Of a stretch of 64,000 nt of DNA, positions 4,503 through 57,515 are shown piece by piece (the first letter of the stretch is position 1; each line of letters begins with the position of its first letter). Source of the DNA: Candidatus Babeliales bacterium. Lineage in GTDB: Bacteria > Babelota > Babeliae > Babelales > Vermiphilaceae. The notes below the pieces were generated by a model that was given only the letters and a program-made list of their open reading frames with translations, was not told where the DNA came from and searched no databases. The translations under genes and the position numbers were made by a program. Where the stretch lies: contig CAVUQO010000003.1 of NCBI GenBank assembly GCA_963743635.1, positions 512,001-576,000 on the forward strand. Reading direction: 5' to 3'.

Positions 4503-5486
4503 GTGGAATCTGTTCTGCGATTCGCTCATAATTGGGCTTTGTTCATTTTAATTCCGTTGGTTATCATACTCGCGTACATTCGTTGGAAATGGCGCTCTGG
4601 TTCTCGGTATCGCTATGCAATGACGCAAACATTAAAAGAGCGTGGTGCAACAACGCGCCATCCGTATCGCACGATACTTGCAGCCTTGCGACTCGCAACC
4701 TTATTGCTCCTGGTAGTGCTCATTGCAAAACCACAATGGGTTGATTTCCGTTCAAAAGTAACGGTAGAAGGGATCGATATCATCGTGGTTTTGGACGTAT
4801 CAGGCAGTATGGATGCGCCGCATGATGAGCATGATGAGCGTTCGCGCTTAAAGATTGCCAAAGAAGAAGCAATTCGCTTTGTAGAAAAACGGCATAATGA
4901 TGCAATCGGGTTGGTGCTCTTTGGTAAAGATGCGCTCTCTCGCTGCCCGTTAACTGCCGATAAACAAACGCTCAAAGAGATTATTGATGCTACGCATATT
5001 GGGCTTTTAAATCCTGAAGGCACCGTGCTTGCGCGTGGTATCATTACGGGCGCAAATAGGTTGCGTCATTCGCATGCAAAAAGTAAAATTATGATCGTGC
5101 TTACTGATGGTGAACCAAGCGAAGATGACGTTGCACCGGAAATTGCGATCGATGTTGCCAAGGAATTGGGTATTAAAATTTATACGGTTGGTATTGGTGA
5201 GGAGTTGGTAAGGCCAGACATATTTGGACGCTTGCATCGAATAGGGCGCGTTAATACCGTCCTTCTACAAAAAATTGCGCGCGAAACAGGCGGTAATTAT
5301 TTCGAAGCAAAACGTGCAAACGATATGCGTGAAATTTATAACACGATCGATGCTTTGGAAAAAACAAAAATCGAAACTCCTATTTTTACGCATTACCAAG
5401 ATTGGTTCATGCCTCTTTTATGGATTGCGTGTATACTCATGTTAATTGAAATTATAGCATCTTCATTAGTGTGGTTTAGTATATGA
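4503..5486 (+). CDS. batA: BatA-like VWA-domain membrane protein
   Basis: N-terminal TM segments, MIDAS DVSGSM, LTDGE, IYTVGIG, C-terminal TM. Confidence 0.85.
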   Translation: MESVLRFAHNWALFILIPLVIILAYIRWKWRSGSRYRYAMTQTLKERGATTRHPYRTILAALRLATLLLLVVLIAKPQWVDFRSKVTVEGIDIIVVLDVSGSMDAPHDEHDERSRLKIAKEEAIRFVEKRHNDAIGLVLFGKDALSRCPLTADKQTLKEIIDATHIGLLNPEGTVLARGIITGANRLRHSHAKSKIMIVLTDGEPSEDDVAPEIAIDVAKELGIKIYTVGIGEELVRPDIFGRLHRIGRVNTVLLQKIARETGGNYFEAKRANDMREIYNTIDALEKTKIETPIFTHYQDWFMPLLWIACILMLIEIIASSLVWFSI

Positions 5487-6496
5487 GTTCTATAGCCTTT
5501 GCGGGTGTTCAATGGGCATCATCGCAAAATCTTATCTATGTTCCCGTACTGATAATCGTCATCGGTTTATTGGTGTATACGGTTATCCGTCGCCGGCGCA
5601 TTATCGCCATGTTGTCAGCATCACAATGGTCTCGCCTGATTATGCATGCCGCATCTCCTGCGCGTAGTATTTTTAAAATGATACTCATGATTATTGGGTG
5701 TTGCAGCTTATTTCTCGCATTATTGCAGCCTCAGTGGGACAAAAAAGAAGAAACCGTTGAGCAAGAAGGACGTGATCTTTTTATTGGGCTTGATATATCG
5801 CGCAGCATGCTTGCGCAAGATTTTTCTCCTGATCGTCTCTCATTTGCAAAACAAAAAATTAAAAAATTATTAAAAAAATTATCATGCGAACGCGTTGGAC
5901 TCATACTGTTCTCCGGTTCAACCTTTGTGCAATGTCCGTTGACTGATGATTACGGCGCATTCTATCTCTTTCTTGATCAAATAGACGCTGAAACGATTTC
6001 GTCTGGTTCTACGGCACTTGATGCGGCAATTAAGGAAGCATTGAGTTCTTTCGAGCGCGGGGTCCAGCGCAAACATAAATTGATCGTACTTTTCACCGAC
6101 GGTGAAGATTTTTCAAGTAATTTAACGAATGTGAAACAGGAAGCGATTGATGCCGGTATGCACATTTTCACGATCGGCGTGGGAACGCCTGAAGGTGCAC
6201 CGATTCCTTTGCGTGATGCACGTGGCGCACAGCAGGGCCATCAAATGGATAAAAAAGGGAATGTCATTATTAGTCGATTGAATGAAGGTATTTTATCCAA
6301 TCTTGCGCATGATTCAGGCGGCATCTACTTGCGTGCACAGCCCGATAATGATCAGGATCTTGATACGCTCGTGCGCAGCGTCGAGCTTTTTGAAAAAGAG
6401 CGCATGGGCGATAAGAAGGTATCGAAGTTTCACGAACAATATCCGTACTTTGTGGGTGTCAGTTTTATCTGTTTTGCACTTGAGTGGTTACTATGA
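5483..6496 (+). CDS. batB: BatB-like VWA-domain membrane protein
   Basis: PQW, LDISRSMLAQD..PDRL, PLTDD, FTDGE, IGVGTPEG motifs; overlaps the batA stop. Confidence 0.85.
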   Translation: MSSIAFAGVQWASSQNLIYVPVLIIVIGLLVYTVIRRRRIIAMLSASQWSRLIMHAASPARSIFKMILMIIGCCSLFLALLQPQWDKKEETVEQEGRDLFIGLDISRSMLAQDFSPDRLSFAKQKIKKLLKKLSCERVGLILFSGSTFVQCPLTDDYGAFYLFLDQIDAETISSGSTALDAAIKEALSSFERGVQRKHKLIVLFTDGEDFSSNLTNVKQEAIDAGMHIFTIGVGTPEGAPIPLRDARGAQQGHQMDKKGNVIISRLNEGILSNLAHDSGGIYLRAQPDNDQDLDTLVRSVELFEKERMGDKKVSKFHEQYPYFVGVSFICFALEWLL

Positions 6497-50803: not shown

Positions 50804-52650
50804 ATGTGCGGTATCGTTGGCTATATAGGCAAAAATTACAGTCGAGACTTTGTGCTTGAAGGGTTAGCCCGGCTTAGAATATCGAGGGTATGATTCTGCA
50901 GGTTTTGCCTGTATCGATCCTCAAGATAGTCGACTTTTCTATCATAAAGCGGCAGGTCGTTTAACGAATCTCGTCGAAAAATGTGAACAAATCACACATC
51001 GATGGTCATTTGGGTATCGGCCATACACGTTGGTCTACCCATGGCATCCCATCAGAAAAAAATGCTCATCCGCAATTTGATTGCAATAAAACAATCTCGA
51101 TTATCCATAATGGCATTATCGAAAATCATCATGTGCTCAGAAAACAGCTTGAAGATACTGGTCATATATTCCATTCTCAAACAGATACTGAAATAGTTGC
51201 CCATCTTTTAGAATCATATCTTGCAACCCATAAAACATTTAAAGCCGCCGTGGTTGATTTAGTAAGTCAGCTTGAAGGCGCATATGCGTTTGTAGCGCTA
51301 TTGGAAGATCATCCTGATGTGATGGTTCTCATTCGTAAGCGTTCTCCACTGTGCGTTGGCATTGGTGATGATGAAATGTTTGTGGCATCGGATTTGTTGG
51401 CGTTTGCCGATAAAACAAAAAAAGTGCTTTTCATGCCGGATGAAAGTATTGCCTTTGTTAAGAAAAATAGAATTGAGCTGTATGATTTTCCGGGTAATGT
51501 TATTCCGATACATATTCAAGAAATTACAACGCAATGGTCTGCCTTTGAAAAAAGCGGCCATGAGCATTACATGCTTAAAGAAATTTATCAACAAAAAACC
51601 GCTATTCACGATACGATCACGTTTCTTCATTCGATCCGTAATCGCACATGGGATCACCTTGGTCTTACCGTTGAGCAGGTGCATAATCTGGATCGCTTGC
51701 ATCTTATTGGGTGTGGTACTTCGTGGCATGCAGGGCTCATCGCAGAATTTTTCTTTGAGCAAATTTGCATGATCCCGACCGAAGTGCATCTTGCATCAGA
51801 ATTTCGCTATTGCCATTTTTTCCCCGATAAGAAAGGTGCTTACATCATGATTTCTCAATCGGGTGAAACGGCGGATACGCTTGAAGCATTGCGATATGAT
51901 CAGCATTACAAAATTACCCACCATTGCATTAACCAACGTTGCATCGAGCACTATGGTGCGTGAAGCAGATGGCTTTTTACTGACGCAAGCGGGACAAGAG
52001 GTTGCCGTAGCTTCTACAAAAGCATTTTCTACTCAAGTGGCAGCATTATATTGGTTAGCTCATCGCATTGCGCTTGAGAAAAAGTTGATCACTGAAGCTC
52101 AAATGGATCAGGCTGAAGAAGATTTATTGGTGGTGGCTGAAGTGCTTGAAAATAGCATTGAAAACTATAAAATTGATATCGTGCAAACGATTGCACCACG
52201 TTATGCGAAATACAAAAAAGTTATTTTTTTGGGACGCAATATTAGTTATCCGTTTGCAATGGAAGCCGCATTAAAACTTAAAGAAATTTCTTATATTTTT
52301 GCACAATGTTATCCTGCTGGTGAATTAAAGCATGGAGCGCTCGCATTGGTTGATGCCGAAACGCCCGTCTTTATCTTCTCTCATCAAGATCCACTGATTT
52401 ATCAAAAATTGGTTTCTAATGCACAGGAAGTAAAAGCGCGTGGGGCTCATATCGTCGTCTTTGCTTTTGATGGCCAAGATGAATTATTTCGCTTGCAGAT
52501 CAAGTCTTTATCATGCCTCGCGTGCGTCCATTACTCGGCCCACTGGCGATGACCGGCCTCATGCAATTCTTGGTCTATCATATGGCTAAAGTCCTTGGCT
52601 GCCCGATTGATAAACCGCGCAACTTGGCAAAATCAGTAACAGTTGAATAA
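50804..52650 (+). CDS. glmS: Glutamine--fructose-6-phosphate aminotransferase with apparent frameshifts
   Basis: MCGIVG, EYRGYDSAG, GIGHTRWSTHG, HNGIIEN, SQSGETADT, VASTKAF, GELKHG, DKPRNLAKSVTVE*. Confidence 0.96.
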
Positions 52651-52660
52651 CGAACTATAG

Positions 52661-52713
52661 AATAAATAAGAACCCCCAGAGAACCATACGGCTTTCTGGG
52701 GGTCTTATTTATT
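52661..52713 (+). terminator. Terminator after glmS
   Basis: AATAAATAAGAACCCCCAGA...TCTGGGGGTCTTATTTATT. Confidence 0.7.
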
Positions 52714-52775
52714 TCTGATATTTTGTGTTATCCTGATAATAATATTGCATGAATCATACATAAGGGAATCATAGT

Positions 52776-53291
52776 ATGACTATTATATCTAAAGTGACTC
52801 GTAAGAATCCAATGGCATTATTGCTTGGCATAATCGCATTAACCGGCATTACAGCACGGGCAATGGATGACCAAAGGGCAGCCCAGATAATCAAAAATAT
52901 GGAATGCCCAAGCGTAGAGGATGTATTGGAAGTATATTCGAAAGTAGAATCGGAAGAAGTGCAAATATTTGATGTTTATGAATGTTTTCTAAAAGATCCA
53001 CAGGTTAAGGGTATGGATCGTGAAGAAGTGAGTAAAGCTCTGCAGGATTTTGGGAGGCAAGCTCAGGGAGTTAACCCACCGTATTCTTATGACTCAGTTG
53101 AAGAGCTTGGTAATACATTTAAGGTTCTTGAGCATGGGGGAAGGCTAAATGTAACGACACTCAGAGGTGCCCTAGAGTTAGATCAATACAAAGATCAAGA
53201 GTTATCAATAAAAAATGCTATCGCAAGTTACGAAAAGTTCAGTACAATACTTGGCGAAATTGTTAAAATTCTGAAATACACTGGAAACTAA
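52776..53291 (+). CDS. Hypothetical exported acidic helical protein
   Basis: Signal ...ITARA|MDDQ. Confidence 0.72.
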   Translation: MTIISKVTRKNPMALLLGIIALTGITARAMDDQRAAQIIKNMECPSVEDVLEVYSKVESEEVQIFDVYECFLKDPQVKGMDREEVSKALQDFGRQAQGVNPPYSYDSVEELGNTFKVLEHGGRLNVTTLRGALELDQYKDQELSIKNAIASYEKFSTILGEIVKILKYTGN

Positions 53292-53308
53292 AAATAACTG
53301 AATAACTA

Positions 53309-53350
53309 AAAAAAGGCAGAGCCCCAAAATTTCGGGGCTCTGCCTTTTTT
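53309..53350. terminator. Bidirectional terminator
   Basis: AAAAAAGGCAGAGCCCC-loop-GGGGCTCTGCCTTTTTT. Confidence 0.85.
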
Positions 53351-53359
53351 ATAGCAAAG

Positions 53360-53434
53360 CTACTTAATCTCAGTAAACTGTATCTTCTCATTGCTTAAAT
53401 AATGTTTCTTCATAAATTCAAGCGATTCTTTACG
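53360..53434 (-). repeat. Orphan duplicate of the last 24 codons plus stop of the S41 protease gene (direct repeat of 55045-55119)
   Basis: 63/75 nt identical; encodes RKESLEFMKKHYLSNEKIQFTEIK* versus RKESLEFMKKHYLSNEKIEFTEIK*. Confidence 0.92.
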
Positions 53435-53442
53435 GAAGGGGA

Positions 53443-55005
53443 TTACTTGATTCCCGACCCTTCAGATTTAAGAGCAGCTTCTTGAGGCCTCTTTTCTTTA
53501 ATGCGTTTTCTCGCTCGAGGAAGCATCTTTGAAGTGAATGTGGTTGCACCCTTAACGCCTTTATAATAGTTGGCAGCTTTTTGTTGCGTTTTTATCACTT
53601 GCTGTGCAAATATTTTTTCCTCTTCAGTCATAGTGCTTTCATCACCAAATTGAATGATTCGTCCATTATTTGCAAGGAATTGGGAGAAAAGGGATGCATG
53701 CTTTAATGGATCGCGCGTGATGAGAACCACGCCCGTTGGATCATTCAGTTTTGTTCCATGAACTCCGAGTATTTGAAATGTCTGAGAATCTTTTTTTAAA
53801 ACTGCAGCTTTAGTCCGAGAGTGAAAATATTCACCCGCGGTAAAGAAGCTTATTGCAGTAAAGAGGGGTGCGATAAAAAAAAGATCGGAACTTCGATTAT
53901 CAATATAATCCCTTTTATTGATGAGTAAGGCGTAGCCCGCGTTTTTTCTTAAAAATAAATAAGCGCATGCGGTGGGATCATTGAATATTCCAGCAAAAAG
54001 AGAGTTACCAAAAGATATAGAATAAGGTTTCAATGTATTTTGTTTGTATTCTTTTTCAAAAGATGCTTCTTGTGAATTGAGGACTGTAGTACCAGCGAGA
54101 ATCTTATTTTCTGACTTATTACCAACTATTGCAGGTTCGAATTTTATAAAAGATGTACCACGCACAACTATTGCCTTATTGAGCTTTCTCGCTTCATATT
54201 CTATATCAATATAATGTGAAATTATTTGATATTCAAACTCTGATCCTATGCCAAGGAAAAATTCTCTAGCTAATCTCGGATCATAATTTTCGTCGGCTAG
54301 TAACTGATTGACGAACGAACTTAAAATTTCCATTGCTTTATCTTTAATCAGATCGCAGCATTCGAGTGAGTTTTTGCAAGAGCGAAGATTTGGATATGAT
54401 TCTAACAAAAGATTGACGATTGCATCATTCATATAATAATGAAGATCATGACCAGGCTTAACAATTCTTTGATTCATGTTCTGATATATCGTCTTAATAT
54501 CTTGTCTTATTTCCTCAGCTTCTTTTTTACTCTCTATTATTGGATTTAGTCTCAGTGTATGACTTTTAGGGTCAGACATCTCTTTTTTTATATCCATCGG
54601 AATGGTAGGTTCACTCGTTTCATTGGGTATAAGCAGATCTAATATTAGATAGAGCTCATAGAGTGCGGTTGGAAAAAAAATAACGCGATAGGTATTATTC
54701 CCCGTTGCATGCTGTATCTTTTTTTCTATCCAAAGCTCTTCGGCATTTGGCTTATCGGGTGTAAAGAGATCCCCCGTTTCAGCGAGTACCTTGCGCCGTT
54801 CGGTAATTGGATCGAGCGCATACGCAGCGCTTGCAGGCCATTGGTATTGTAACAATATTTTTTCGATAACTGGGTTGTTTTTTTTATCCGAATCATCGAG
54901 TGGCGTAAAGCCGGCTTCAGTTTGCTTGAGAATAAGCAGTTCTGCGTGGGCGATTCGTGAGCAAAACAGCAAGCTTATTGCAAATAAACGAATTTTTGAA
55001 TACAT
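53443..55005 (-). CDS. Exported 520-aa protein inserted between the two 3'-end copies; possible ADP-ribosyltransferase-like C-terminal domain
   Basis: Signal ...RIAHA|E; VVRG...SISF...GYALLI...GEYFH motif order; appears AT-rich. Confidence 0.75.
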   Translation of the reverse strand: MYSKIRLFAISLLFCSRIAHAELLILKQTEAGFTPLDDSDKKNNPVIEKILLQYQWPASAAYALDPITERRKVLAETGDLFTPDKPNAEELWIEKKIQHATGNNTYRVIFFPTALYELYLILDLLIPNETSEPTIPMDIKKEMSDPKSHTLRLNPIIESKKEAEEIRQDIKTIYQNMNQRIVKPGHDLHYYMNDAIVNLLLESYPNLRSCKNSLECCDLIKDKAMEILSSFVNQLLADENYDPRLAREFFLGIGSEFEYQIISHYIDIEYEARKLNKAIVVRGTSFIKFEPAIVGNKSENKILAGTTVLNSQEASFEKEYKQNTLKPYSISFGNSLFAGIFNDPTACAYLFLRKNAGYALLINKRDYIDNRSSDLFFIAPLFTAISFFTAGEYFHSRTKAAVLKKDSQTFQILGVHGTKLNDPTGVVLITRDPLKHASLFSQFLANNGRIIQFGDESTMTEEEKIFAQQVIKTQQKAANYYKGVKGATTFTSKMLPRARKRIKEKRPQEAALKSEGSGIK

Positions 55006-55044
55006 AAATTTTCCCTTTTTTTTAGTGCGCTCGGTACGGGCGCG

Positions 55045-56505
55045 TTATTTGATTTCAGTAAATTCTATTTTCTCATTGCTCAAATAATGCTTCTTCATGA
55101 ATTCAAGCGACTCTTTGCGATTTTTCATTGAAGTCTTGCAGACCGTTTTGCCCAAGTAAAAGAGATTAATCAGATTAATTGTTTCTTTAAATTGGTTATC
55201 ATTTTGCAAGCCTTCTTGTATGCGCGCAGACCAGTTTTTGATCGCTTCAGATTGAGCTGTTTTTTCATCTTTTTTGTTTTCTTTATAATCATGCGGTTTT
55301 AAATAATTTGCAGATGATGCTTCGCGCCCATAGTTTTTGGTAAACCATTCCACTTGTTCTGTCGGTGGATAGGTGCGGTCAATGACGAAATCGGGTTCTA
55401 GGCCGGTTGCTTGGATTGTTGTGTCATTTGAGAAGTAGTAGATGGAAGTCGTCAATTTAAGCGCGCAGTTGTTGCTGATTGGTATCACTTCTTGCACCGT
55501 CCCTTTGCCATGGCTATCTGACCCGACGAGGAATACTTGAAGGTTATTGTTACCGGCATCGGAATGAATACGCAAGCAGCCAGCAAGAATTTCCGCTGCT
55601 GATGCGGTATAGTTATTCACCAGAATAAAGATTGGTGGTGGGTTTTTGACCATAGGATCGCGGCGCGTTACATAACGATCAGTTTCTTTATTGTTTTTAT
55701 TGCGTGACGATACGATATGCGTTCCTTTATCAAGGAATATCCCTGCGATGTCGACCGCTGATGAAAGTAATCCGCCCAGATTATTGCGCAGATCAAGAAT
55801 GAGTGCTTTGTATTCTTTCTTTTTTGAAAGTTCAATTAGTTTTTCTAGCTGCTTTAAGGCATTATCGCTAAAAGAGTTGAGCAATAAATAGCAGATGTTT
55901 TGTTTTTCTAAATAAAATGAGAGTGTATTTTGCTCATTAATAAGATCGCGTGTGATATCAAAGGTGAGTACGTTTTGATTTTTATCACGCATAATTTTCA
56001 ATTGCACCTTGGTGTCGCGTGGGCCTTTAATGCGTGCGGTTGCCTCATCAGTTGTCATGCCATCAAGTGATTTGCCATCAATTTCAACAATCTTATCCAT
56101 CGGCCGCAATTCAGCTTTTTCTGCGGGGCCGCCGGGCACTACGTCAATAATAGTGAGCGTTTTATCTTTTGGTTGGCGTGTATTATCGATTACTACGCCA
56201 ACGCCATAAAATTCACCACTGGTGGCATCGAGAATCATTTTATATGTCTTGGGATCGAGAAACGCTGAATGCTTATCAAGACTGTTTAAAAAAGCATCAA
56301 TTGCCTTGATCATGCAGTCTTCCACGTCATCCGCTTTATAGTGCCGTTGTTTTGTGAGATTTACCGTTTCAGCAAAGGTGCGTGTCCAGTTATAAAAGAG
56401 GGTGTCAAAATCCCCTTTGGGTGTTTCAGGTTTTTCATCTGCGAAGAGGGAAAGCGGGATAAGAAGATGGGTGATGCATAATGCATATTTGAGGGTGTTT
56501 TTCAT
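55045..56505 (-). CDS. ctpA: S41-family carboxyl-terminal processing protease (PDZ plus protease)
   Basis: LDKHS, GEFYGVG, GGPAEKA, ILDLRNNLGG, TASAAEI (Ser), HGKG (Lys), GLEPD. Confidence 0.92.
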   Translation of the reverse strand: MKNTLKYALCITHLLIPLSLFADEKPETPKGDFDTLFYNWTRTFAETVNLTKQRHYKADDVEDCMIKAIDAFLNSLDKHSAFLDPKTYKMILDATSGEFYGVGVVIDNTRQPKDKTLTIIDVVPGGPAEKAELRPMDKIVEIDGKSLDGMTTDEATARIKGPRDTKVQLKIMRDKNQNVLTFDITRDLINEQNTLSFYLEKQNICYLLLNSFSDNALKQLEKLIELSKKKEYKALILDLRNNLGGLLSSAVDIAGIFLDKGTHIVSSRNKNNKETDRYVTRRDPMVKNPPPIFILVNNYTASAAEILAGCLRIHSDAGNNNLQVFLVGSDSHGKGTVQEVIPISNNCALKLTTSIYYFSNDTTIQATGLEPDFVIDRTYPPTEQVEWFTKNYGREASSANYLKPHDYKENKKDEKTAQSEAIKNWSARIQEGLQNDNQFKETINLINLFYLGKTVCKTSMKNRKESLEFMKKHYLSNEKIEFTEIK

Positions 56506-56600
56506 AGGAAATCCTTTTTGGTAAAATGTAGTTATCAATCATAATAATGATATGATGAAGGCATACGAAATAGTTTGATGCAAAAAGAGAGGTGGCACGC

Positions 56601-57515
56601 ATGGAATCAGAACATATCTCTGCAGATTTAATAAAACAGGTGCATGTACAAGGCAGTCATGAAGATCAAGTGATTATTGTGACTGGATATTCAGGGGCGG
56701 GTAAGAGTTCCGTGCTGCGCACGCTTGAAGATAGTGGCTTTTTGTGTGTGGATAATTTGCCGATTGCATTGCTAGGACAATTTTTCGATCTTATTGATCA
56801 AACAACGATGGGTAAAAAGCGGGTTGCCCTCGGGATCGATATTCGTGGTGGGGATCGCATGGAATCGGTAGTTGAAGCACTGTTGCATATGAAGATTAAG
56901 TTTTCCACCTTAAAAATTCTTTTTTTACGTGCGAGTGCACCTATACTCATGAAGCGATTTCAAGAAACGCGGCGCAAGCATCCGCTTGCCGATAACATTC
57001 ATTTGAGTGATGCGATCGAGCAGGAGCGCATTATGCTGCAGCCGCTCGTTGATCGTTCTGATATGATTTTCGATACCGATCAGCTTACCGTGCATCAATT
57101 GCGCAGTATGATACGTGCAACTTTCTCGCAAGGGCAATCACAAAAAATAGTCGTGAGCTTGATTTCATTCGGATTCAAATATGGTATTCCCACTGAAAGT
57201 AATTATGTATTCGATGTGCGCTCGTTGCCTAATCCCTATTTTGTAGAATCGCTCAAATTGCATACCGGGACCGATGCCTGCATCAATGCATATTTGTTTG
57301 AAAAGCAGCCAGTTCAGGAATATTGGGTCCGACTTATTGATTTTATACGATACGCTATTGCAAAATCATATGAGGAAGGGCGATGTTTTATCAATATTGC
57401 GATCGGATGTACTGGTGGAAAACATCGTTCAGTGGCATTTATTGAAAAAATTGCGCTTGAGGAGATCCCCAATACTCATTTTCTATTGCAGCATCGTGAT
57501 ATAGAGCGGGACTAA
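56601..57515 (+). CDS. rapZ: RapZ/YvcJ P-loop nucleotide-binding protein
   Basis: TGYSGAGKS, CVDNLP, ETRRKHPL, SFGFKYG, DVRSLPNP, GCTGGKHRSV. Confidence 0.94.
   Translation: MESEHISADLIKQVHVQGSHEDQVIIVTGYSGAGKSSVLRTLEDSGFLCVDNLPIALLGQFFDLIDQTTMGKKRVALGIDIRGGDRMESVVEALLHMKIKFSTLKILFLRASAPILMKRFQETRRKHPLADNIHLSDAIEQERIMLQPLVDRSDMIFDTDQLTVHQLRSMIRATFSQGQSQKIVVSLISFGFKYGIPTESNYVFDVRSLPNPYFVESLKLHTGTDACINAYLFEKQPVQEYWVRLIDFIRYAIAKSYEEGRCFINIAIGCTGGKHRSVAFIEKIALEEIPNTHFLLQHRDIERD

Follow-up and report, generated by a model that had tools for sequence, protein, structure and literature searches.

A 64-kb window of a Candidatus Babeliales bacterium genome (GCA_963743635.1, contig CAVUQO010000003.1, positions 512,001 to 576,000 of the forward strand; GTDB lineage Babelota; Babeliae; Babelales; Vermiphilaceae) contains a ctpA gene, coding for an S41 C-terminal processing protease, whose last 25 codons are present twice, with a single gene for a putative secreted protein, here called the cargo, between the two copies. 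The genome, referred to as G000, measures 1.45 Mb in 3 contigs and is 85% complete; the window is C3:512001-576000 in its coordinates, and positions given below without a prefix are those of the window. The ctpA gene lies on the minus strand at 55045..56538 (C3:567045-568538), matches Pfam Peptidase_S41 at 2.1e-38 as well as PDZ, and forms an open reading frame (ORF) of 497 aa from a TTG start, or 486 aa in the database form. Its working 3' end, or tail (55045..55119, minus strand), comprises the last 24 codons, encoding RKESLEFMKKHYLSNEKIEFTEIK in frame with ctpA, and the stop codon TAA. A 39-nt spacer (55006..55044, minus strand) with a short G+C hairpin, an A-run, a ribosome-binding-like motif GGGA and no T-tail on the minus strand leads from this stop to the ATG of the cargo gene (53443..55005, minus strand), whose 520-aa product starts with a signal-peptide-like segment. 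Only 8 nt (53435..53442, minus strand), which form the right-hand joint of the inserted block, separate the cargo stop from the second ctpA tail, the orphan (53360..53434, minus strand), which encodes RKESLEFMKKHYLSNEKIQFTEIK, ends in TAG and is out of frame with the cargo.

A bidirectional intrinsic terminator (53309..53350, both strands) serves the ctpA side and the side of the convergent genes orf171 and glmS. Read on the minus strand (53350-53309), it begins 9 nt past the orphan stop; 9 of the 19 bp in its stem are G-C pairs, and a T-run is present. It looks native, like the hairpin found behind ctpA in an insert-free relative (L034, below). The sole terminator-like match 3' of the working stop (55023-55047) is on the opposite strand, and no minus-strand promoter-like site was found in the 39-nt spacer; the cargo is probably transcribed by read-through from ctpA. 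A first-pass annotation of the window had reported this repeat, its codon pattern, the orphan abutting a strong terminator and the position of the cargo, and all of these sequence statements were confirmed.

The two tails (55045-55119 and 53360-53434, minus strand) are identical at 63 of 75 nt, and their longest identical run is 11 nt. The 12 differences are distributed as 1, 0 and 11 over first, second and third codon positions, the order in which such counts are given throughout. Ten codons, including the TAA/TAG stop, differ synonymously and one carries a replacement (GAA/CAG, E/Q), leaving 24 of 25 residues the same. The 75-mer occurs at only two places in the 1.45-Mb genome, with E = 2.6e-18 for the second copy, and similarity to ctpA starts abruptly at 53434. 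If each position had a chance of 1/3, at least 11 of 12 differences would fall at third positions with a probability of 4.7e-5. We also simulated a duplication in situ in which the working copy evolved at an omega of 0.1 and the orphan neutrally, with kappa set to 1, 3 and 6, in 20,000 runs; this null reached 11 third-position differences in at most 2.5e-4 of the runs, and yielded no more than one replacement in at most 1e-4 of the runs across the three kappa values. On the strength of the simulation we reject a model in which the tail was duplicated locally and the orphan then decayed neutrally. Because of that bias, the rejection of the null and the lack of any obvious translation of the orphan, whose reading frame is open for 33 codons only with no ATG, GTG or TTG ahead of an internal Met, we conclude that both tails served as functional ends of a gene during most of the time over which they diverged. 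The proposal that the copies had diverged under protein-level selection, and not by plain local duplication, is thereby upheld.

The same observations bear on the idea that the orphan is kept in place by selection, being either still translated or able to restore ctpA upon loss of the cargo. Its amino-acid sequence is indeed preserved despite 16% DNA divergence, but the open frame is short and has no start before the internal Met. Reading of the orphan by frameshift from the cargo was rejected, as it is out of frame, has no slippery heptamer and stays open for so short a distance. The repeats are too diverged for frequent homology-driven deletion, and the orphan of a second gene, ychF (below), contains a stop codon, so that we consider selective retention very improbable. 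A diversity-generating retroelement was likewise rejected, since the mismatches are not adenine-specific (G/A 3, A/G 5, C/T 3, G/C 1) and there is no reverse transcriptase.

Among the 19 public sequencing runs listed as sharing words with the window, two, X1 (peat, study P1) and X2 (soil, study P2), hold at least half of the sampled words. Strains were compared using contigs of X1-X4 at 90% likeness or more, with X5-X19, which have small shares, outside the comparison. A contig of 6524 nt from X1 is unbroken on 53370-56700, where it has 7 other letters and 1 gap (99.8% identity), and bridges the orphan, the cargo, the working tail and ctpA. None of its differences lies in ctpA, and 6 of the 7 are in the 3' part of the cargo (53580-53940). 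Contigs from X2 and X3 span the cargo-orphan and cargo-working-tail joints, and X1-X3 all have one additional T in the homopolymer after 55015. That assembly fused two haplotypes, a mis-join which long reads failing to span both copies would have indicated according to the first-pass annotation, has next to no chance of being correct. Frame changes in the neighboring glmS gene and the homopolymer difference, which are not common to the other runs, could be cited in its favor; the X1 contig nonetheless bridges both copies and the cargo, X2 and X3 cover each joint, and the two runs with the largest shares come from different studies. This holds unless X1 is the window's own data set, and even then the differences to the left of 53370 argue for another haplotype.

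Homology of X1 and X2 to the window ends at 53370, which makes the final 10 nt of the orphan (53360..53369, minus strand) strain-variable. In X1, 1443 other letters replace 53308-53369, that is, the terminator and the orphan's final 10 nt. In X2 the contig has a loose end whose reverse complement, read by eye, continues the orphan as GA followed by A ATC AAA TAA CG and then by other DNA. These are the codons of the working copy, where the window orphan has GAG ATT AAG TAG, and the X2 form of the orphan shares 13 nt with the working tail at its 3' end. Because homology to X1 and X2 breaks at 53370 and the X2 end reads different alleles, the window orphan is a mosaic in which two synonymous alleles meet near 53370, and this contig comparison shows that a crossover has occurred inside the orphan. 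Judged from the contigs, there are at least three synonymous versions of the tail in the population. Tail, cargo and the 5' part of the orphan are shared at 99.8% between strains with differing right flanks. In X1 and X2 the orphan is followed by further DNA with an ATG 10 nt past the orphan stop, and there it seems to head a second tail-plus-gene module. X1 also differs from the window further on: it is without orf171, skipping 52704-53280 (577 nt) with 12 nt instead, and its glmS 3' end is about 95% identical to that of the window (15 other letters in 304). The 27 nt at 53281-53307, made up of the last orf171 codons and 16 nt, are X1's only match to the window in the stretch from glmS to the orphan.

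Searching metagenomes with ctpA yielded nine loci, of which L034-L037 are same-genus relatives at 79-82% identity; over all same-genus relatives the identity of ctpA is 79-83%. At 90% the cluster of the window's ctpA consists of 1 sequence, and the next allele is 83% identical, with none between 83% and 100%. The gene order sod-orf101-rapZ-ctpA is kept in 4 of 4 of these loci, and L034 and L036 keep the synteny rapZ-ctpA-glmS; rapZ (56592..57515, plus strand), which is divergent from ctpA, forms a conserved left flank, with the order rapZ-ctpA the same in L034-L037. The stops of ctpA and the convergent glmS abut in L036, 0 nt apart, and in L034 a gap of 94 nt containing a hairpin terminator separates them. 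An unrelated ORF of about 0.8 kb (about 280 aa) begins about 30 nt past ctpA in L035 (7469-8317), and in L037 (4295-5692) an unrelated 465-aa ORF with a signal-peptide-like start lies 85 nt past ctpA. No second ctpA tail was found in the available downstream sequence of any of the four loci, each of which has a single tail. The other accessory gene of the ctpA-glmS gap in the window, orf171 (52776..53291, plus strand), has no Pfam family and a G+C content of 38.8%, the 7th percentile of the genome's genes; it is absent in L034 and L036. The ctpA-glmS slot is thus a variable site, and in the window cargo and orf171 are both additions. The empty site expected if the cargo had been inserted into the ctpA locus exists, as ctpA directly facing glmS, in L034 and L036.

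These empty sites were also to reveal which of the two copies is the resident one. In this respect the comparison favors neither copy, as the empty-site alleles match the working copy at 57-61 and the orphan at 55-60 of 75 nt. The two tails of the window are closer to each other (63/75 nt, 24/25 residues) than to the tail of any relative (55-61/75 nt, 4-7 residue changes), yet the differences between them are allelic in kind. The Q residue of the orphan occurs in 0 of 35 ctpA tails read. Minimal mobile elements of Neisseria occupy a slot between conserved genes, hold strain-specific genes and are exchanged via flanking homology. The ctpA-glmS slot is variable in the same manner, but the Neisseria elements leave no duplicated gene end.

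The glmS gene itself (50804..52650, plus strand), convergent on ctpA, is readable in the window only across about 4 frame changes. In X1, X2 and X4 there is an extra G after 52487, which abolishes one frame change; the site is not a homopolymer. Either glmS is a pseudogene in the window strain or the frame changes are assembly indel errors, and errors of this kind could also account for the 85% completeness of a genome in 3 contigs.

No Pfam family was found for the 520-aa cargo protein. Its 64 homologues are all hypothetical proteins, the best non-self match being 46% identical and the only names being Candidatus Babeliales, and by sequence comparison the cargo is assigned to a Babeliales/Dependentiae hypothetical-protein family. 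Two paralogues, 43% identical, lie in tandem on contig C2. At 37.6%, the G+C content of the cargo gene ranks at the 3rd percentile among the genes of G000. An AlphaFold2 (AF2) model of the protein has a predicted local distance difference test score (pLDDT) of 87; with it, Foldseek found no match in the PDB at E <= 0.001 and a wide VIA-align search no chain at Z >= 5, and the best scores from an ESM Atlas search, 0.77-0.83, were under the meaningful level. The weak structural matches (Z 2.4-2.9), over cargo residues of about 255-460, include several ADP-ribosyltransferase-fold proteins. Within the family R282, H395 and R397 are invariant and S329, S331 and E392 near-invariant, an R...SxS...E pattern. 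These hints of an ADP-ribosyltransferase-like fold are a lead only. There is no immunity-like partner gene beside the cargo.

The best explanation of the whole, to which we give a probability of roughly 0.55, is that tail and cargo arrived as one piece, displacing an earlier tail. A 1.69-kb block (53435-55119), consisting of a ctpA tail, the 39-nt spacer, the secreted-protein gene and 8 nt, would have been inserted in the last 25 codons of ctpA, the donor most likely being a related Dependentiae lineage with the cargo gene directly behind its ctpA. The incoming tail would now complete the protease, and the earlier tail and its terminator, which look like a native ctpA end as in L034, would have been shifted 1.6 kb downstream and would no longer be translated. 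The left joint could have formed by homology within ctpA, in register, and the right joint by an illegitimate or very-short-homology join 75 nt ahead of the resident stop, with no dedicated recombinase taking part in the entry of the block. Homology-facilitated illegitimate recombination would account for a left joint in register and is expected to leave 3-10 bp of microhomology at the illegitimate joint. The right joint reads CCCCTTC up to the joint and CGTAAAG beyond it. We infer that tail and cargo were linked as one incoming piece because the differences between the tails reach the stop codon (within 18 nt in the X2 form), leaving a later exchange too little homology.

Once formed, the tail-cargo-tail structure would spread among strains by ordinary homologous recombination, and the cassette may enter any empty site through two homologous crossovers. 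The orphan would act as the right-hand homology arm, pairing with the working ctpA tail of another strain, and it would be for this reason that the orphan is a mosaic of alleles. RecA, DprA, ComEC (partial match) and Ku are present in G000, the genome of an apparently host-dependent bacterium. The Ku homologue, at G000:C2:196145-196687 outside the window, matches at the 1e-40 level, above the Pfam cut-off; 1 of 14 control genomes has one.

A displacement of this type has precedents in C-terminal displacement arrays. For rhs, cdiA and effector-immunity genes of type VI secretion systems (T6SS), Kirchberger et al. (2017, PMC5361080), who cite Jackson (2009) and Poole (2011), describe incoming DNA that shares the upstream part of a gene and brings a new 3' end with one or more downstream genes, the old end becoming an orphan; homology-facilitated illegitimate recombination is proposed there, after which the arrays move as blocks by homologous recombination. 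The ctpA orphan (53360-53434) resembles these in lying downstream, in being homologous to a conserved gene end and, in X1 and X2, in being followed by further DNA. The difference is that the Rhs, CdiA and T6SS tips are different toxins accompanied by immunity genes, whereas the ctpA tails encode the same peptide (24/25 residues) and what is gained is an unrelated neighbor gene.

Orphan gene ends recur elsewhere in the genome. In a first scan the last 35 aa of each dominant ORF were searched by tblastn against the genome and matches outside ORFs retained. A strict scan of dominant ORFs of at least 120 aa then required the last 12 codons with an in-register stop, at least 9 of 12 identical, in an open frame of less than 80 codons within 5 kb. 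This strict scan gave 16 downstream orphan matches from 13 genes in G000, with 4 upstream and 0 in 5 shuffles. When G000 was scanned in 20-kb pieces, 13 of 1201 genes had downstream matches, with 4 upstream and 0 in 3 shuffles, and G009, from a second genus of the family, gave by the same procedure 8 downstream matches, spread over 7 of 984 genes, with none upstream and none in 3 shuffles. The search for further orphan 3' ends that the first-pass annotation had recommended thus turned up 13 genes in one genome and 7 in the other.

Nine loci were detailed in G000, with ychF, ctpA, murC, spoIID, ftsY, a holA-like ORF (no Pfam family), a DUF4097 protein, a GNAT protein and a hydrolase as hosts. 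What has been inserted varies from locus to locus: genes for a ParE-like toxin, an M48-like peptidase and a Sel1-repeat protein occur, as do several ORFs with a signal peptide but no assigned family, and in some instances there is no gene at all. The hosts in G009 include lepA, mraY, fabD, a PAP2 protein, NamZ and a Xer-like recombinase. At lepA (L110:2076-3893) a 63-nt orphan of the last 20 codons lies 123 nt downstream, with differences of 3, 0 and 9 and 11 synonymous codons to 1 replacement; at mraY (L097:2621-3685) a 10-codon orphan (33 nt) lies 816 nt downstream, with 11 of 33 nt different and 8 synonymous codons to 0 replacements.

The case that parallels ctpA most strongly is ychF, where the displaced tail is 228 nt long and has 27 differences (4, 2 and 21; P = 2.9e-6) in 20 synonymous and 5 replacement codons; the simulated null was reached in at most 2e-4 of 5000 runs. 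The repeats (L048:3073-3401 and 5242-5570, equivalent to G000:C3:742073-742401 and 744242-744570) run about 95 nt past the stop. About 56 nt beyond each of them comes another ychF end of 10 codons, changed only synonymously, so that ychF has four tails altogether. The nested mini-orphan, GDLLDIRFNV followed by a stop, is an older one; 10 of its 33 nt do not match the working end, and the changes are synonymous in 9 codons and replace a residue in none. A Sel1-repeat gene lies between the large copies on the opposite strand, and since the ychF cargo is so oriented, co-transcription with the host gene is not general. The longest identical run between the ychF copies is 56 nt. According to Amarir-Bouhram et al. 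(2011, PMC3240628), single crossover of a circle with a partial gene fragment was shown experimentally to give an insert flanked by duplications of 109-950 bp, and true homology-facilitated illegitimate recombination gave deletions. The ctpA insert is similarly flanked by a duplicated homologous gene-end segment, but a single crossover needs near-identical homology for RecA and ctpA offers 75 nt at 84%; the 56-nt run at ychF would qualify.

In the remaining G000 cases the copies hardly differ (1 difference in 102 nt) or have differences spread evenly over the codon positions (5, 6 and 8; 5, 4 and 9; 3, 2 and 6). The set of orphan-tail cases is heterogeneous. At L046:2296-3152 (G000:C2:297296-298152) the end of a 316-aa ORF is repeated over 102 nt with 1 difference; the repeat finishes exactly at the stop and brackets an opposite-strand ParE-like toxin gene. 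At L053:2115-2356 (G000:C3:288115-288356) a broken second copy of the last ~55 codons of ftsY lies within 236 nt downstream of the gene, with no gene between.

Cases such as these raise the alternative that at ctpA, too, an insertion duplicated 75 nt of its target locally, and that a later allelic replacement of ctpA, reaching into the working tail, produced the synonymous differences. Nobusato et al. in 2000 are reportedly cited for insertion with long target duplication. In Furuta, Abe and Kobayashi (2010, PMC2853133) this class comprises inserts of less than 20 kb without mobility genes, flanked by direct repeats of more than 30 bp (46-423 bp) that match a single-copy target in a related insert-free genome and in some instances extend over a gene's 3' end; the majority come from species with natural competence. 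The cargo there is a restriction-modification system, DNA breakage is proposed as the cause, and the repeats are mostly near-identical (e.g. 417/423). The ctpA locus shares with this class an insert that is absent in L034 and L036 with aligned flanks, a 75-nt repeat that is present as one copy in relatives, and a length of 1.69 kb with no mobility gene. It departs from the class in that its cargo is a secreted hypothetical protein and not a restriction-modification system, and in that its repeats are 84% identical with almost only synonymous differences, which points to two alleles more than to one duplicated target.

Besides this documented class, the near-identical and evenly diverged cases in G000 and the evident recombination among strains about 5% diverged at the ctpA locus are what a local duplication with later replacement would build on. 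At ctpA, however, the differences extend to the stop (within 18 nt in X2), leaving a cargo-less donor no room for the right crossover. The ychF unit of 330 nt is diverged throughout, including the 95 nt past the stop, and nothing would lead a duplication in place to finish at the stop codon, whereas similarity stops within 4 nt of it in 5 of the 9 cases. We regard this course of events as improbable at ctpA.

The ends at the stop codon are better accommodated by a different alternative, in which the ctpA block is a remnant, or a trans-mobilised miniature, of a site-specific integrative element that targeted the ctpA 3' end, carried a mimic of the gene end, and whose integrase has been deleted or is encoded elsewhere. 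Elements such as ICESt1/ICESt3 at fda, cis-mobilisable elements and dusA islands integrate at the 3' end of a gene and restore the gene, and the prophages of phage 21 and e14 supply a synonymously different icd end. PMC12803456 confirms icd as the insertion site of phage 21 and e14. The ctpA locus resembles such islands in its in-register replacement end, in the synonymous differences between working and orphan copies and in having the orphan beside the native downstream DNA; it differs from them in that they have an integrase and a defined core, whereas the ctpA block has no integrase in 64 kb and is 1.69 kb long with one gene, and the insertion sites share no core.

An integrative origin would account for the in-register junction, for the 5 of 9 similarities that end no more than 4 nt from the stop codon, as they should if a mimic is conserved in its coding part alone, and for the saturated synonymous recoding of the ychF mini-orphan and the mraY orphan of G009. 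Five recombinase genes are also present in G000, three for tyrosine recombinases (C3:608758, C3:774518 and C1:2960) and two for serine recombinases (C2:178681 and C2:458180). The one nearest to ctpA (C3:608758) is nevertheless about 40 kb away, neither the 64-kb window nor any of the nine inserts contains a recombinase gene, and no rve or DDE_Tnp_1 transposase was found in G000. A decayed element would find no room in the 1.69-kb block, whose edges hold no more than 39 and 8 non-coding nt. A shared core motif was sought and rejected, no 10-mer recurring in at least 3 of the 9 junction sets; the ctpA copies are nowhere identical over more than 11 nt, and lineage-specific hosts (the GNAT protein, the hydrolase and the DUF4097 protein) are poor integrase targets. 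The mini-orphans and the ends at the stop would be accounted for best by a recombinase that was lost or acts in trans, but gene, core and room for one are all lacking, and we consider an integrative origin unlikely, though it deserves to be taken seriously. The statement that no integrase is present thus stands for the window and the nine inserts, whereas "integrase-free" amounts to absence of evidence in a genome with five recombinase genes elsewhere. An integrase-free mechanism for the ctpA insertion is plausible.

Several points weigh against the arrival of tail and cargo as one piece by homology-assisted joining. No working ctpA end with an orphan-type tail was found in any genome or contig and, for this reason, the donor and the direction, that is, which copy came in, are inferred, as is the way the joints arose. 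A cargo homologue directly behind ctpA was found in none of 40 relatives or 9 metagenome loci. The ctpA insert is flanked by a 75-nt duplication, whereas in experiments homology-facilitated illegitimate recombination usually deletes recipient DNA. A RecA crossover within the 75-nt, 84%-identical ctpA tail is implausible, though feasible at ychF with its 56-nt run; the present divergence of the tails may post-date the joining event. The mini-orphans of ychF and mraY, 30-33% diverged in DNA and identical in protein, would be beyond homology-guided joining and fit an element-borne mimic better. The contigs through which X1-X4 were examined cannot display circles or empty junctions, and the counts of orphan tails come from two genomes of one family.

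The first-pass annotation had suggested that the locus would represent an integrase-free way of placing effector genes behind housekeeping genes. The novelty was overstated, since publications already describe inserts that have long flanking direct repeats and no mobility genes, gene 3' ends that were displaced, and islands that restore a gene end. The ctpA scar is real and recurrent, but it is of an already described kind of recombination footprint. What is new is the evidence that strains have recombined within the orphan, the nesting of orphans at ychF, and the finding that such tails recur at housekeeping genes throughout the genome and in a second genus. The locus also bears on the unexplained class of insertions with long target duplication, as the apparent duplication at ctpA would consist of two alleles, and with a cargo other than a restriction system at ctpA, such insertions cannot in general be caused by the cargo cutting DNA. 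Orphan tails with synonymous-only divergence provide a simple genome-wide marker of past recombination between lineages in uncultured organisms.

More tentatively, Dependentiae, and perhaps other small-genome lineages, might stack accessory or effector-like genes behind housekeeping genes independently of recombinases, with the displaced tail as a built-in homology arm and the orphan tails of the 13 and 7 genes as the footprints; we put this forward as a possibility that may well not hold. If it is true, obligate intracellular bacteria with few mobile elements would gain lineage-specific secreted proteins behind essential genes, borrowing their transcription, and would share them among strains by way of the duplicated gene end.

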